Shown here: positions 8,969 through 61,974 of the stretch, in pieces
Numbering within the stretch: position 1 is the stretch's first letter
Layout of the letters: each line of letters starts with the position of its first letter
Source: Trueperaceae bacterium
GTDB taxonomy: Bacteria; Deinococcota; Deinococci; Deinococcales; Trueperaceae
Length of the DNA stretch: 64,000 nucleotides
Direction of reading: 5' to 3'
NCBI GenBank assembly: GCA_965213925.1
Contig: OZ243927.1
Coordinates: 3,744,001 to 3,808,000 of the forward strand
Notes under the pieces: model-generated
What the model saw: the letters and a program-made list of their open reading frames with translations, nothing else
Databases searched by the model: none
Told to the model about the DNA's origin: nothing
Program-made: the position numbers and the translations under genes

Positions 8969-9097
8969 AGTGCTTTGCAACATATCCTGAGATGAATTGT
9001 CGCAGGTCTCACCGCGTAGCGAGATTTCATCTCTGAATGTGCGTACTCACCGATGTTCTTTTCAGTGAGGTCGTTTGTGACCAGATGATACCTGCTA
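8969..9097 (-). repeat. MITE-like repeat family A, copy 1
   Basis: Minus strand begins TAGCAGGTATCATCTGGTCA and aligns along its length with 41079-41192; its TAG is the stop codon of the upstream gene. Confidence 0.85.
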
Positions 9098-9568
9098 GTT
9101 ACGCTGCGCCAACTGCACCGATACGTCTGGGCTAGTCCGCTCTAACTGCGCTAACATCTCGGGGTTGTCAGCGACCTCTTCTAACATCTCGCCCAAGGTC
9201 ATGGCGTCGTCGCGGTCTACGTCGTCAATATCTAGGTAGATGGAGTTCTTGCTCGAGCCGCCGGAGAACGTTTCGACGGTATAGACCTCGCCGTCAATCT
9301 CTATGGTGACGTACTTGACGGTTTCGTCGTCTTCACCTGTACCGACGAGTCTCTTGGCGACGGCTCCGTCGCCCATCTCCGCTGTGGCGAGCATGTTGCC
9401 GAACTCGGCGGGGTCGCCGTCATAGAGCGTGACGGTGGCGAAGTCGCTGGGGTTGCCGGGCGAGAAGACGAAATTTTGCACAGTGTCTTGTGCAGTGTTT
9501 TGTGCGGTGGCAACGCCTCCTACGAGAACGGCTCCAGCTAAGGTGAGGGCTAGGGTGGCTCTTCTCAT
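9095..9568 (-). CDS. Secreted hypothetical protein with a 'VTLYDGDP' motif
   Basis: Signal peptide MRRATLALTLAGAVLVGGVATAQ, RBS AAGGAAG; shares the motif with 61975-62703. Confidence 0.8.
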   Translation of the reverse strand: MRRATLALTLAGAVLVGGVATAQNTAQDTVQNFVFSPGNPSDFATVTLYDGDPAEFGNMLATAEMGDGAVAKRLVGTGEDDETVKYVTIEIDGEVYTVETFSGGSSKNSIYLDIDDVDRDDAMTLGEMLEEVADNPEMLAQLERTSPDVSVQLAQRN

Positions 9569-12903: not shown

Positions 12904-13099
12904 GCTTTCAGGATGAGCGCCGACTCTATAGATGCGGCTAAAGGTTCGTCAAGATTCGCACAAGAGGTGTGGCGGCACCGTTCCGGCGAACCTTCGCGGC
13001 GCCTCGAGGCTTGCAAGAAGCGCTTAGAATGTCGCGGCGGGGTTTGAGGCGCAGCGCGCAGCTACACGGCGCAGGGTTTCACGTGCTACAATCATCTCT

Positions 13100-13574
13100 T
13101 GCGGTGAGAGGAACCTGGTCGCGGCCTTGCCGGGCAACTGGCTTGGCTGAGGAAAGTCCGGGCTCCGCAGGGCAGGGTGCCAGGTAACGCCTGGGCGTGT
13201 AAGGCGACGGCAAGTGCAGCAGAAAGGAAACAGCTTGGAGGTATCATCTTCGAACAGACGCAACGGGCGTCATTAGCGTGACAAGCCAGCGTCGTAGTAG
13301 GTGATGATACCTCCAAGCTACGTTGAAACGGTGCGGTAAGAGCGCACCAGTGCCCTTGGCAACAAGGGCAGCTAGGTAAACCCCACCCGGTGCAAGGTCC
13401 GATAGGGAGAAAGAGCTTGCCCGGCTCGCTAACATCTCCGGGTTGACCGCTCGAGGCGCTTGGCGACAAGCGTCCCAGATAGATGACCAGGCAGCTCCGC
13501 GAGGTTCATCTCAGAGCGATGCTCTATAGATGCGACTAGGAGTGAACAGGACCCGGCTTATCACCTCTCCCGCA
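13100..13574 (+). ncRNA. rnpB: RNase P RNA (type A) with enlarged P12 and 3' helix
   Basis: GAGGAAAGTCCGGGCTC, AGTGCAGCAGAAA, GGTAAGAGCGCAC, GGTAAACCCC, AGATAGATG, ACAGGACCCGGCTTA; P1 GCGGTGAGAGG/CCTCTCCCGC; TACAAT -10 at 13087. Confidence 0.97.
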
Positions 13575-13584
13575 CTATCTTTTT

Positions 13585-13618
13585 AGACAGGCGCTACACT
13601 GCGCCTGTCTTTCTTTTT
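13585..13618 (+). terminator. rnpB intrinsic terminator
   Basis: AGACAGGCGC/GCGCCTGTCT stem followed by TTCTTTTT. Confidence 0.9.
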
Positions 13619-13897
13619 GAGGTCCTTCTAAAAGTTGACCGAACAATGTAAAAAATTTTACATCGGCTTAGGTCTTGGTTGTGTGAGTCGGTATTCTCGC
13701 ACCGAGGGGTCGCGGTGGGTGGAACGGGGGGAGCGGGTGGGGAAGAGCCAACTTAGAGCCGACTACGTTCCAGAGAAACCCCGTGCTAGACTATAAAAAG
13801 CTACCTTTTCACGGCGCACTACCCCCTTCCCACTCGCGCTGCCCGAAGCTTCCAAGTGGAGCGCAGGTGGGAGAAAAACTAGAAAACAGGCGCAACA

Positions 13898-13948
13898 GTG
13901 GGTGAGAGGTGGGGACTTGTGGGAATTTGTGGAGAAGTGTGTTACACT
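13898..13948 (+). promoter_or_regulatory. MraZ-binding repeats and dcw promoter
   Basis: GTGGG/GTGGA boxes at 13898, 13909, 13919 and 13929 (10-11 bp period); extended -10 TGnTACACT at 13940-13948. Confidence 0.85.
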
Positions 13949-14038
13949 TCACTCCATAGGCTAAGTCCCTGCGTCACACTCTTTTGACGGTTTGACGCTG
14001 AACCTGGACTCTGCACTTAGGTGGGAGTGTCGTGGAAG

Positions 14039-14467
14039 ATGCCGTTTGGCGAATTTCAATACTCGGTAGACGACAAAGGTCGGGTCATCGTCCCACCTTC
14101 CTTTCGCGACTTCGTCACCGACGGCATGATCGTAACGCGCGGCATGGAAGGTTGCTTGTACGTCTTCCCGCTCACCAAATGGAACGCCATCGAGAGCGAG
14201 CTGAGCAACCTCTCCATCACCGACGCAAAATCAAGAGGCTTCGTGCGCTTTTTCTACTCGGGGGCGTCCAAAGCCAAAATCGACTCGGCGGGGCGCATCA
14301 CGATTCCCGCTACGCTCCGAAGTTTCGCCTCGCTGGAAAACAACGTCCGCATCGCGGGTTTTCCCAACCGCTTAGAGATTTGGGACGAAGCGAAGTGGGA
14401 AGAGAACATCAGCGCCGTGCAGAACCAACCCGACGCCCCAGAAGCGCTGTTGGAACTCGTCGGATGA
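14039..14467 (+). CDS. mraZ: Transcriptional regulator MraZ
   Basis: 'GEFQYSVDDKGRVIVP', 'DSAGRITIP', 'RLEIWD'. Confidence 0.97.
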   Translation: MPFGEFQYSVDDKGRVIVPPSFRDFVTDGMIVTRGMEGCLYVFPLTKWNAIESELSNLSITDAKSRGFVRFFYSGASKAKIDSAGRITIPATLRSFASLENNVRIAGFPNRLEIWDEAKWEENISAVQNQPDAPEALLELVG

Positions 14468-17230: not shown

Positions 17231-17276
17231 AGGTATAGTGTCCTCTATGGGTCAGAACGTGATACAGCATACGAAC

Positions 17277-17354
17277 AGCAGGTATCATCTGGTCAAATAC
17301 GCTCTTAGTTTAGAAGGGCTTGATCAGAACGCACGTTCGGAGATGATGCTTGCG
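17277..17354 (+). repeat. MITE-like repeat family A, copy 2 (core hairpin only)
   Basis: AGCAGGTATCATCTGGTCA...CGCACGTTCGGAGATGATGCTTGCG. Confidence 0.8.
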
Positions 17355-36209: not shown

Positions 36210-36371
36210 TAGCGTTCAACTCCCAAAGGCGCAGAATAACGCGGCAGGAGTCGCGGGGCTGAAAGTTGGAACACGAGTCAACCGATTGGTTTTGTAGCGC
36301 AAACCTTTCAAGAACGGATTTGAAACCTGCCCTTACGCCGCTGCCTCGTTCACGCCTTTACACGGCGTTGT

Positions 36372-36399
36372 GTAGGGGTGATTCATGAATCACCCCTAC
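36372..36399. repeat. GTAG-type REP palindrome
   Basis: Perfect 28-bp palindrome GTAGGGGTGATTCATGAATCACCCCTAC. Confidence 0.85.
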
Positions 36400-36502
36400 G
36401 GATGAGCTGTAATCCTGATGCGCTGAGATGCTGACAAGCTGACTGGCCGCCTATGGTAAAACCTAGTGACATTCGCTTTTACTCTACTTGGGAGGCACAG
36501 TT

Positions 36503-37958: not shown

Positions 37959-38070
37959 TAGTGGTTTCATATCTTACCGAGCGAAACTGTCGCAAGTATC
38001 ATCCCTGAATGTGGATGTAAAAGCGATGCTTTGTTCAGTGAGTCTGGCTCTGACCAGATGATACCTGCTA
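37959..38070 (-). repeat. MITE-like repeat family A, copy 3
   Basis: 112 bp bounded by TA; minus strand TAGCAGGTATCATCTGGTCA...GATGATACTTGCG...ACCACTA. Confidence 0.85.
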
Positions 38071-38274
38071 TCTCCAGGCGTTGCCCAACCGGCCACCAGC
38101 AGCGGAACGTCAAAACAATGGGAGCCCAACATGTCCACGAAAACTTAGCGGTCATTTTTTCCAGATAGGCTTGTCCTTTGGTCTCTGTGCTGTTGTAGCT
38201 CGAGACCTTCACCCCGTCGTCTGACATTTTTCGGAATGTCTGGGTAGGCGGCACATTCGCTTATGAGGGAAAAG

Positions 38275-40901: not shown

Positions 40902-41008
40902 TTAGAAAGTGTAACAAAGGGTTTCGCGCCCAGGCGTGTATTTTTCATCTTTGGGCTCGAGAAGGGTTATTACGGAAGGAGGATGTTAAGTTCTCTGCTT
41001 GAGGGAAC

Positions 41009-41077
41009 GAGTAGTCAGTAGTCAGGTATCAGAATTCAGCATTTGCCTGCGAGCTGACTACTGAATTCTGATACCTA
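41009..41077. repeat. Heptamer-repeat inverted hairpin
   Basis: AGTAGTC-like units; AGGTATCAGAATTCAG/CTGAATTCTGATACCT stem. Confidence 0.75.
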
Positions 41078-41078
41078 A

Positions 41079-41192
41079 TAGCAGGTATCATCTGGTCAGA
41101 AACACTCTCACTGTAACGAACAGTGTTTAGTACGCACATTATAGAATGATGCCTGCGTCCATTCGTCTCAGTATATTTTGGAAGTGCCACTA
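41079..41192 (+). repeat. MITE-like repeat family A, copy 4
   Basis: 114 bp TAGCAGGTATCATCTGGTCA...AATGATGCCTGCG...GCCACTA. Confidence 0.85.
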
Positions 41193-50096: not shown

Positions 50097-50240
50097 TTGG
50101 CAACTGATGATGGAGCGAAGGCGGCGCTTTTGTTACCGCAGCGCCGCCTAAACAAGCCTAAATAAGAAGGTTAAATGAGACAGTCTTTGCATTTATAGTT
50201 GGCACAGTGAGAGCGTCTCTTCGTAACACTTCGTGCACTA

Positions 50241-50351
50241 TAGCAGTTCACATAAGCACTGAGCTTGAATCACGCAAGTATCATTTCCAAACGTGCGCGC
50301 TAGACTGCGTTCCCTCTTCTCGGATTGGCTCAAACCAAATGATACTTGCTA
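50241..50351 (-). repeat. MITE-like repeat family A, copy 5
   Basis: 111 bp, ends TATAGCA/TGCTATA; reverse complement differs from 61762-61872 at a single base. Confidence 0.95.
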
Positions 50352-50451
50352 TATTTCTATTCGCGTCCGCTCAGGTCGGTCTTCTATCACAAAGGCTCGA
50401 GCTAGAGGAGATTTGGTCAAGCTCGTTCTTCGGATGCGCTAAACTGAGACT

Positions 50452-50631
50452 ATGAAACCCGAGTACATCTCCTGGCAAAAGGATGACATACGGTCAAGGT
50501 GTTTAGAAGAGTATCCCAACCTCTGGACGCAGGGCGAGAGCGAAGCGGAGCTTAGAGAGAACCTCACCAACATTTGCAAAGACGTAGAAATATTGGAAGT
50601 CAAGTCTGGGGGTGCTTATGGACGCAGTTAG
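50452..50631 (+). pseudogene. Degenerate HicB-like antitoxin copy
   Basis: MKPEYISWQKDDIRSRCLEEYPNLWTQGESEAELRENL..., a diverged duplicate of 51250-51420. Confidence 0.7.
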
Positions 50632-51217
50632 AGAACGCTCTGTCAACTGGCAACCGCTCGTCATGCGCCTCCCGGCATTTGAGCTGAACGCCGACACTTT
50701 CTTCCATATTGCTCAAGCCAATCAGGACCTCCGCATGGAGTTAAGCGCCGAAGGAGACCTTATCGTCATGCCGCCCGCCGGAGGCAACACGAGTAGCCGC
50801 AACGCCGAACTTACTGCTCAATTCGTCTTTTGGAACCGCCAACATAAGCGGGGCAAGGTCTTCGATTCTTCTGGAGGGTTCATCTTAGCAAACGGCGCGG
50901 TTCGTTCACCCGATATATCCTGGGTCAGCGAGGAGAGATTGGCTGAGCTGACAGACGTACAAAGGGAAAAGTTTCTCCCGCTCTGTCCCGAGTTCGTCTT
51001 AGAGCTTCGCTCCCCTTCTGACCGCCTCAGCGTCGTTAAAGAAAAGATGCAAGAGTATATGGAGAACGGCGCAGAATTAGGCTGGCTTATCGACCCGCAG
51101 GAGAGGCGCGTTTACATCTATACGGCTGATGGCGTGGAGGAACTCGAGCAGCCTCAAGAGGTTGTGGGAACGGGTGTGTTAGAGGGATTTAGGCTCGAGT
51201 TGGCGGAGATTTGGTGA
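50618..51217 (+). CDS. Uma2-family endonuclease-like protein
   Basis: 'RMELSAEGDLIVMPP', 'FDSSGGF', 'RSPDISW', 'CPEFVLELRSPSD'. Confidence 0.93.
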   Translation: MDAVRERSVNWQPLVMRLPAFELNADTFFHIAQANQDLRMELSAEGDLIVMPPAGGNTSSRNAELTAQFVFWNRQHKRGKVFDSSGGFILANGAVRSPDISWVSEERLAELTDVQREKFLPLCPEFVLELRSPSDRLSVVKEKMQEYMENGAELGWLIDPQERRVYIYTADGVEELEQPQEVVGTGVLEGFRLELAEIW

Positions 51218-51249
51218 GGTTGGTTCTTCGGATACGCTAAAATGAAGCT

Positions 51250-51420
51250 ATGAAACCTAAGTACGTTTATTGGCAAGAGGACGACATGTGGTTAGGCTAT
51301 TTGGAAGAGTATCCTGACTACTGGACGCAGGGCGAGAGTGAAGCGGAGTTGCGGGAGAATCTCCTCGACATTTATAAAGACGTGAGCAGCGGCGCTATTT
51401 CAAGTATTGGATTCTTGTAA
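51250..51420 (+). CDS. HicB-family antitoxin-like small protein (possibly 3'-altered)
   Basis: MKPKYVYWQEDDMWLGYLEEYPDYWTQGESEAELRENLLDIYKD; TAAAAT 6 nt before the ATG; below the ORF-track size cutoff. Confidence 0.78.
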   Translation: MKPKYVYWQEDDMWLGYLEEYPDYWTQGESEAELRENLLDIYKDVSSGAISSIGFL

Positions 51421-51447: not shown

Positions 51448-52218
51448 GGTAGTGGTCGCGTCTCGAATGCTACAATAAGACATGGTTACGAAGATAGTGA
51501 GTTGTTACCACTGCGGTAGCGAGAACATCGTCAAGAACGGCGTAGCGCCGAATGGCAAGCAGAAGTACCGCTGTAAGGACTGTAAGAAGCAGAGTCGCGA
51601 GGAGCCGAGCCCGAACGGATACACCGAGCCGCGTAAAGAGGAGATTCTAAGTGCCTACGAGGAGCGTTCAAGTTTGAGAGGACTAGAGCGCACCTTCGGT
51701 GTAGCGCGTAGCACGGTGAGTCGCTGGCTCAAAAAAAACGAAGAAAACTCCCAGCCCTAAAAGACACCCTGGTCTCGTTCGACCAGCCTCAACACGTAGA
51801 GCTAGAACTTGATGAGATGCACTCGTTTGTGCAGAAGAAAGCGAAGAAGCGTTGGGTATGGGTGGCGCTATGTAAGCAGACCCGTCAAGTCGTTGCCTGC
51901 GTCATAGGTGGGCGCGGCGCAGCTACCTGTAAGCAACTCTGGAAAGGTATCCCTCAAAGCTACAAGCAAGGTCTCTGTTACAGCGACTTCTGGGACGCCT
52001 ACCAAAGCGTACTACCAGACGAACACCACCAACCCGTCAGTAAAGCCTCTGGCTTAACCGCTCATGTCGAACGTTTTAACAATACCTTGCGCCAACGCCT
52101 CGCTCGCTTCGTCCGCAAGACCCTAGCCTTCTCCAAGTCCGAGCATATGCACCTTACCTGCTTGCACCGTTTCCTCGTTCGCTACAACCTAGAAATCATT
52201 CGGGATTGAACCACTACC
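51448..52218 (+). mobile_element. Complete IS1-family insertion sequence (771 bp)
   Basis: Ends GGTAGTGGT.../...ACCACTACC; 8-bp target duplication AAATAAAC at 51440-51447 and 52219-52226. Confidence 0.96.
51482..52209 (+). CDS. IS1 transposase InsAB' (programmed -1 frameshift)
   Basis: InsA Zn finger CxxC/CxxC plus HTH (51482-51760); A8C slippery site at 51731-51739; InsB 'LDEMHSFV', 'SDFWDAY', 'VERFNNTLRQR'. Confidence 0.93.
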
Positions 52219-55562: not shown

Positions 55563-55565
55563 AGA

Positions 55566-55622
55566 CAGTAGTCAGCATTCAGTAGTCAGCATAAAAACTT
55601 GACTACTGAATGCTGACTACTG
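55566..55622. repeat. Heptamer-repeat inverted hairpin after leuS
   Basis: Perfect 23-bp inverted repeat CAGTAGTCAGCATTCAGTAGTCA. Confidence 0.85.
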
Positions 55623-61755: not shown

Positions 61756-61761
61756 TCATTA

Positions 61762-61872
61762 TAGCAAGTATCATTTGGTTTGAGCCAATCCGAGAAGAGG
61801 GAACGCAGTCTAGCGCGCACGTTTGGAAATGATACTTGCGTGATTCAAGCTCAGTGTTTATGTGAACTGCTA
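61762..61872 (+). repeat. MITE-like repeat family A, copy 6
   Basis: Near-identical inverted copy of 50241-50351. Confidence 0.95.
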
Positions 61873-61904
61873 TAAATCTTCCCATTTGCCAGCAACACCG
61901 TTTC

Positions 61905-61932
61905 GTAGGGACGATTCATGAATCGTCCCTAC
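61905..61932. repeat. GTAG-type REP palindrome
   Basis: Perfect 28-bp palindrome GTAGGGACGATTCATGAATCGTCCCTAC. Confidence 0.85.
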
Positions 61933-61974
61933 ACCGCGCTGCTTACGGTTACAGCTTACCGCTCGAGGACAAGT

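Follow-up and report, generated by a model that had tools for sequence, protein, structure and literature searches.

A hairpin in helix P12 of a Trueperaceae RNase P RNA shares its termini with a dispersed palindromic repeat: a plausible insertion

Introduction

Variable helices of 23S rRNA may contain intervening sequences, and Rickettsia palindromic elements (RPEs) are known from genes for both RNA and protein. The RNase P RNA gene (rnpB) of the Trueperaceae bacterium analysed here resembles these systems, as a variable helix of an essential structural RNA appears to have received an extra hairpin. For the 23S rRNA intervening sequences and the RPEs, unlike the hairpin described here, empty and filled sites have been documented, as has excision for the rRNA sequences. 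A second related case concerns cyanobacteria: Vioque reportedly described in 1997 short tandemly repeated repetitive (STRR) sequences in helix P12 of rnpB from heterocyst-forming species. The likeness lies in a genomic repeat sequence being tolerated in the variable P12 of an essential ribozyme. Yet the cyanobacterial STRR sequences are tandem heptamer arrays, whereas our case is a single long palindromic hairpin that has only its termini in common with a dispersed repeat, and it comes from another phylum, Deinococcota.

In the part of PMC2858038 that deals with P12, the helix is described as having no universally conserved nucleotides and as sometimes dispensable, with cyanobacteria being cited. 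For the dispersed repeat, comparable systems are small dispersed repeats or MITEs that form hairpins and are transcribed as part of operons. Two of them are named in titles cited in PMC2775950: the nemis/Correia repeats of Neisseria, on which RNase III acts, and Chunjie, a MITE of Geobacter. The family of about 80 nt described below is similar in that it has terminal inverted repeats, is intergenic (copy B lies within the dcw gene row) and can form a hairpin as RNA. It differs from them by having no clear target-site duplication, no parent transposase with matching ends in the DNA analysed, and an asymmetric 3' tail. In the open-access literature searched, 'RNase P RNA' and 'miniature inverted-repeat' occur together in PMC2775950, and there in the reference list only; nothing was found on Truepera together with RNase P. 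A sequence-only reading of the same DNA had cited RPEs within rnpB as a precedent, which was not found in that literature either.

Results

The rnpB gene and its surroundings

In the 64-kb stretch of DNA that was analysed as a whole (64,000 nucleotides, referred to as the window), rnpB was recognised as a class A RNase P RNA gene with 259.9 bits against RF00010 (E 1.4e-83; gathering score 100), and the alignment spans the complete model, positions 1-367 of 367. The conserved P4 strands and the junctions J11/12 and J12/13 were recognised, with GAGGAAAGTCCGGGC and ACAGGACCCGGCTTA aligned at high posterior, and all core elements of the class A ribozyme are kept in the RNA. Relative to RF00010 the gene carries two insertions: P12 is longer by 64 nt, and a further 38 nt are inserted at 13507-13544.

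13102..13576, plus strand: rnpB, bacterial RNase P RNA class A (RF00010)
13507..13544, plus strand: P19-like hairpin, a 38-nt insertion between P2' and P4' of rnpB (RF00010 alignment, folding)
13585..13610, plus strand: terminator-like hairpin followed by a T run, 3' of rnpB (folding)

Immediately 5' of the gene a TGnTACAAT-like -10 can be read from the sequence, and mraZ and the dcw genes follow directly 3'. A direct repeat some 26 nt long (GAGCG..G.CTCTATAGATGCG.CTA, with an exact 13-mer within) has one copy in the P19-like insertion and the other 5' of rnpB. The two copies, at 12914-12940 and 13513-13538, align locally with a score of 16.5, which was attained in 0 of 3000 shuffles, and the 5' copy overlaps a minus-strand promoter-like site. 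A relation of the P19-like insertion to the tail of the repeat family, through the common TTCATCTCAG, was rejected as lacking significance, since 205 of 1500 segments drawn at random from the window score equally, and an nhmmer match in the P19 region (E 3.9) was taken as noise.

A search with a core rnpB pattern, which was not specific to the lineage, yielded at least 117 loci from many phyla, with two Trueperaceae among the matches listed. The latter have the closest rnpB genes among these matches: L013, from an uncultured Truepera sp., and L055, from a Trueperaceae bacterium. Their contigs are short (6.3 and 8.5 kb), and their proteins are about 45-70% identical to those of the window in tblastx stretches. 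The position of rnpB immediately 5' of mraZ and the dcw cluster is the same in the window (13102-14467), in L013 and in L055. L013 also forms a strong hairpin in the P19 region (z = -5.07), and the sequences of this region and of the window's P19-like insertion are unrelated.

Helix P12 is extended by a perfect hairpin

The sequence-only reading had assigned a perfect 16-bp stem to the P12 position. Coordinates and stem hold: GCTTGGAGGTATCATC (13233-13248) pairs perfectly with GATGATACCTCCAAGC (13303-13318), and the additional pair A13232-T13319 extends the stem to 17 bp, with strands at 13232-13248 and 13303-13319 and without any G-U pair.

13232..13319, plus strand: extended P12 hairpin, 17 perfect Watson-Crick pairs and a 54-nt interior (pairing, folding)
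13239..13248, plus strand: core of the P12 5' arm, AGGTATCATC, the sequence found also at the core of the terminal inverted repeat in the family
13303..13312, plus strand: core of the P12 3' arm, GATGATACCT
13249..13302, plus strand: interior of P12, folded in part; neither the family interiors nor P12 of L013 are detectably similar to it

The hairpin folds at -47 kcal/mol (z = -7.19; 0 of 200 shuffles reach it), and its stem is the second longest among the window's 34 perfect hairpins (stem of at least 10, loop 3-120). With its perfect pairing, the stem looks more like a DNA palindrome than like an evolved RNA helix.

For a comparison of lengths, P12 was delimited by anchors in J11/12 and J12/13 in 101 of 118 sequences, 17 without an anchor being left out. 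The window's P12 measures 97 nt between these anchors, about three times the median of 34 nt in the 101 rnpB genes. In 100 well-anchored genes the segment ranges from 21 to 108 nt; a value of 300 nt for L011 is due to mis-anchoring. The two longest well-anchored segments among the 101 anchored sequences are those of L013 (108 nt) and the window, and for L055 the distance is about 37 nt. In L013, P12 (5598-5699) has a branched fold, is not a perfect palindrome (z = -0.93) and shows no similarity to P12 of the window (p 0.77). An internal direct repeat is present in it as well (GATAAACCCCGA twice). In the lineage of the window and L013, P12 and P19 are both hypervariable. Comparison of rnpB with relatives had been put forward as a check on an insertion into P12. 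Neither L013 nor L055, the closest genes among the matches listed, has this hairpin, but both are too distant to show an empty P12 site.

The base of P12 (CAGCTTGG/CCAAGC) and J12/13 are unlike the ACCGCC...GGTAAGG of nearly all other rnpB genes examined. Because both elements differ from those of the relatives, the hairpin does not represent a clean insertion into an ancestral loop; it is the whole helix that was remodelled, not the tip alone. The sequence flanks beside the P12 arms contain no target-site duplication, and Tandem Repeats Finder detected no arrays in or near P12 (13000-13700).

A family of palindromic repeats in the window

The window holds six copies (A-F) of a hairpin repeat of about 80 nt, with covariance model (CM) scores of 80-91 bits; five had been counted before.

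9019-9098, minus strand: repeat copy A (CM 80.1 bits)
17275-17354, plus strand: repeat copy B, the 'copy 2' of the earlier reading, between ftsI-like and murE-like genes (CM 83.1 bits; Pfam)
37991-38071, minus strand: repeat copy C, upstream of mazE/mazF (CM 83.7 bits)
41078-41157, plus strand: repeat copy D (CM 90.8 bits)
50273-50352, minus strand: repeat copy E, of a subfamily with the compensated termini GCAAGTATCATTT (CM 90.8 bits)
61761-61840, plus strand: repeat copy F (CM 90.8 bits)

A 13-bp terminal stem, GCAGGTATCATCT / AGATGATACCTGC, is common to all six copies, its doubly compensated variant being found in E and F. The interiors remain recognisable (nhmmer E 1e-9 to 1e-24), with TGGTCA... 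and ...ACGCACATTC conserved, whereas the arms have drifted. In copies A-D drift is confined to the 3' arm, the 5' arm being invariant. In copy A about 18 nt break the 3' arm (9019-9040); the diverged arm nonetheless pairs with the 5' arm. The alignment of A-F also revealed that the 3' arm is followed by a tail of about 25 nt with moderate conservation, which makes the element asymmetric and extends it beyond the hairpin.

Copies E and F, which are inverted relative to each other and lie 11.4 kb apart in different contexts, show 99% identity over 115 nt; their identity stops at TA on either side. At the sequence level this identity suggests recent copying of the element class, and the inverted pair could be the outcome of an inversion or of recent transposition. 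TA precedes GCAGG in five of the six copies, but 3' ends are TA in only three of the six. The 11.4 kb enclosed by the pair (50239-50353, 61760-61874) include the IS1-like transposase, a Uma2-family gene and the core genes leuS, accD/accA and pckA.

On one strand, the non-Watson-Crick cells of the family stem amount to seven G-U versus one A-C (eight cells, which may not be independent). The G-U-rich strand folds better (z -2.5 to -4.9, compared with -1.4 to -3.0), and this asymmetry hints at a constraint at the RNA level. Four of the six copies share their orientation with the next gene downstream. No Rfam family matched the repeats; at a permissive threshold copy B again gave no match, and the region of copy D only sub-threshold miRNA-hairpin noise. 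A blast search returned no plasmid match for copy D or P12. The ftsI-murE spacer of L055 does not align with the site of copy B.

The family had been called a MITE. This is appropriate insofar as terminal inverted repeats and several dispersed copies are present (13-bp stem, six copies in 64 kb), but no parent transposase with matching ends was found in the window. Its sole transposase is IS1-like (51482-52209) with unrelated ends (GGTAGTGGTCGC...), and since the ends differ, this element was rejected as the parent of the repeats. The label MITE is unproven.

Further repeats were observed in the window. The IS1-family element itself extends over 51448-52218, with an InsA-like ORF (51482-51760), a DDE_Tnp_IS1 ORF (51817-52209) and imperfect 22-nt inverted ends starting GGTAGTGGT. 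A 193-nt direct repeat, 79% identical, is located at 50393-50585 and 51191-51383, on either side of the Uma2-family gene (50612-51217). Another palindromic repeat type, based on CAGTAGTCAG, occurs at 41008-41064 and 55566-55622, the latter copy having the longest perfect stem of the window (23 bp). Finally, two related short palindromes (GTAGGG..GATTCATGAATC..CCCTAC) at 36365-36400 and 61904-61939 are 83% complementary to each other and may be terminator-like or REP-like repeats.

P12 and the repeat family share their arms

The inner 10 bp of the P12 stem (AGGTATCATC / GATGATACCT) are identical to the core of the family's terminal inverted repeat. Compared with that repeat, 10 to 11 of 13 positions match contiguously in P12, and the outer GC/GC is replaced by GG/CC. 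Exact AGGTATCATC sites number six in the window, four at the ends of copies A-D and two in the P12 arms, so that all are located in hairpin arms; when up to one mismatch is allowed, there are 10 matches, compared with 1.23 expected. The 8-mer AGGTATCA occurs nine times in the window (0.53 expected), and eight of these occurrences fall into the arms of three hairpin types: the repeat family, P12 and a separate hairpin next to copy D.

41024..41076, plus strand: separate hairpin with a 16-bp stem, a 21-nt loop and the outer ends AGGTATCA / TGATACCT, abutting copy D

The 8-nt ends of this hairpin recur in the family and in P12, but its interior and length differ from both, which indicates that common termini combined with differing interiors occur locally. 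Among the 34 perfect hairpins, E and F aside, the longest contiguous stretch in common with the family terminus is 11 bases in P12, 8 in the hairpin at 41024 and at most 6 in the rest. Over all perfect hairpin stems of the window, 3.7e-4 chance 10-mer matches are expected. The distance from arm to arm is similar as well: it is 74 nt in P12 (13239-13312), 73 nt in B and C, and 72 nt in A, D, E and F, which agrees over all copies with the 74 nt against 72-73 nt reported previously. Judging from these sequence comparisons, the likeness between the arms of P12 and of the repeat family is unlikely to be due to chance.

P12 is not clearly a member of the repeat family

Scoring P12 with models of the family, which had been proposed as a check, gave results that fail or are borderline. 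With nhmmer, a profile from copies A-D matched P12 in the window only in the arms (E = 2.5 and 4.1), and a six-copy HMM gave no P12 match at E up to 1. The covariance model with filters off assigned 18.7 bits (E about 0.014) to the plus strand and 18.1 bits (E 0.02) to the minus strand. These scores derive from the stem only, the interior being passed over as a local end on both strands. Similar values were obtained for the wrong strand of E and F (20.4 bits) and for an unrelated hairpin at 55565-55621 (18.3 bits). It thus becomes clear that what the model rewards here is a long hairpin with a partly matching stem.

The interior tells a similar story. Similarity to copy B in reverse orientation had been noted to continue inward from the arm, and this holds for the adjoining nucleotides: ATCATC-TTCGAACAGACG in P12 and ATCATC-TCCGAACGTGCG in copy B agree at 8 of 12 positions, or at 8 of 13 over 13 nt, and next to this one arm 8 of 13 nt match both B and E. 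It does not hold for the whole 54-nt interior, which in global alignment scores no higher against the family interiors than shuffled sequences (p 0.64 and 0.89). The family's 3' tail of about 25 nt is likewise absent from P12, where the 3' flank is rnpB core. The pattern is therefore the reverse of that of a decayed copy: in P12 the arms are perfect and the interior is unrelated, whereas in the true copies the arms drift and the interiors are conserved. No second element with a P12-like interior was found in the window. Among the loci listed (at least 117), there was no match to the AGGTATCATC 10-mer or to the family by nhmmer; L013 and L055 contribute only 14.8 kb to this sample. P12 is, in sum, not clearly a member of the 80-nt family.

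Discussion

The sequence-only reading held that a repeat of this family had been inserted into P12. In favour of such an origin are the arms, the span, the length of the helix and the absence of the hairpin from the two closest rnpB genes; the interior, the missing tail and the model scores speak against it. We consider insertion plausible as the origin of the hairpin, but not proven. The reading that we prefer is a modified one, for which the chances seem about even: P12 would have gained a hairpin module that shares the termini of the family, and the module would be tolerated since P12 is peripheral. Specifically, the distal part of P12 may be an acquired module belonging to a local class of palindromes with AGGTATCA(TC) termini. 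It would have the termini and the arm-to-arm length in common with the 80-nt family, without being a recognisable copy of it. Most likely, a sister element with the same termini and another interior inserted or recombined at or near the P12 loop, and the basal stem was probably remodelled afterwards. The added hairpin would extend P12 coaxially, and as P12 is a peripheral helix whose length varies greatly, the addition would be tolerated. We infer the insertion event, its direction and its neutrality from these comparisons.

Other origins have to be weighed against this scenario. It is conceivable, if rather unlikely, that P12 grew in place by slippage, duplication or drift, the 10-bp identity with the repeat termini being a coincidence. 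The wide variation of P12 in length and sequence (21-108 nt in the 100 well-anchored genes) would accommodate such growth, and the equally long but unrelated P12 of L013 implies that long P12 helices arise in this lineage without the motif; the interior without family similarity and the borderline nhmmer and covariance-model scores also fit. A coincidence is difficult to reconcile, however, with a chance expectation of only 3.7e-4 10-mer matches, with a loop length within 2 nt of that of the family, and with a perfect stem free of G-U, and no tandem repeats were found in or near P12. Insertion of a full copy of the 80-nt family, the interior of which later diverged beyond recognition, would account for the arms, the span and the 8 of 13 nt that match B and E beside one arm. 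Yet copies A-F keep their interiors and drift in their arms, P12 does the opposite, and the conserved tail is absent from it; this makes a decayed copy very improbable.

A different kind of explanation invokes function instead of transposition. The AGGUAUCAUC/GAUGAUACCU duplex could be a module that functions as RNA or binds a protein, such as a site for a double-strand RNase or binding protein, and that selection keeps both in intergenic hairpin transcripts and in the RNase P RNA. Several features of the repeats point in this direction, namely the seven G-U against one A-C on one strand, which folds better, the orientation of four of the six copies like the next downstream gene, the invariant 5' arm of A-D opposite a drifting 3' arm, and a third hairpin type with the same ends. 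Nevertheless, the repeats match no known Rfam family, no candidate protein was identified, the G-U asymmetry amounts to eight cells that may not be independent, and the near-identity of E and F with its sharp boundaries suggests copying at the DNA level. A shared functional duplex is thus an explanation that we hold to be improbable. In its boldest form, which we regard as a long shot, the duplex would be a working RNA module and not selfish DNA: a site recognised by a double-strand-specific RNase or binding protein, present roughly once per 10 kb in an intergenic hairpin and added to RNase P RNA as well. Cleavage in P12 might then leave a ribozyme that acts in two pieces, like rRNAs with intervening sequences, or the ribozyme would be recruited or regulated together with those transcripts.

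If P12 did acquire a hairpin module by insertion, this would be a further case in which the most variable helix of RNase P RNA harbours repeat sequence from the genome, and one in a new phylum. It would add a palindromic element where the known case is tandem, the presence of a repeat in P12 itself being known already. For practical purposes, inserts of this kind reduce the quality of covariance-model alignments and may mislead the annotation of rnpB boundaries, and the synteny of rnpB and mraZ provides a conserved anchor for gathering rnpB across the Trueperaceae group. The gene is also a natural construct with which to ask whether a P12 longer by about 75 nt alters folding or substrate recognition. 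Should the insertion be true, the peripheral helices of essential ribozymes would once again be seen to absorb extra sequence.
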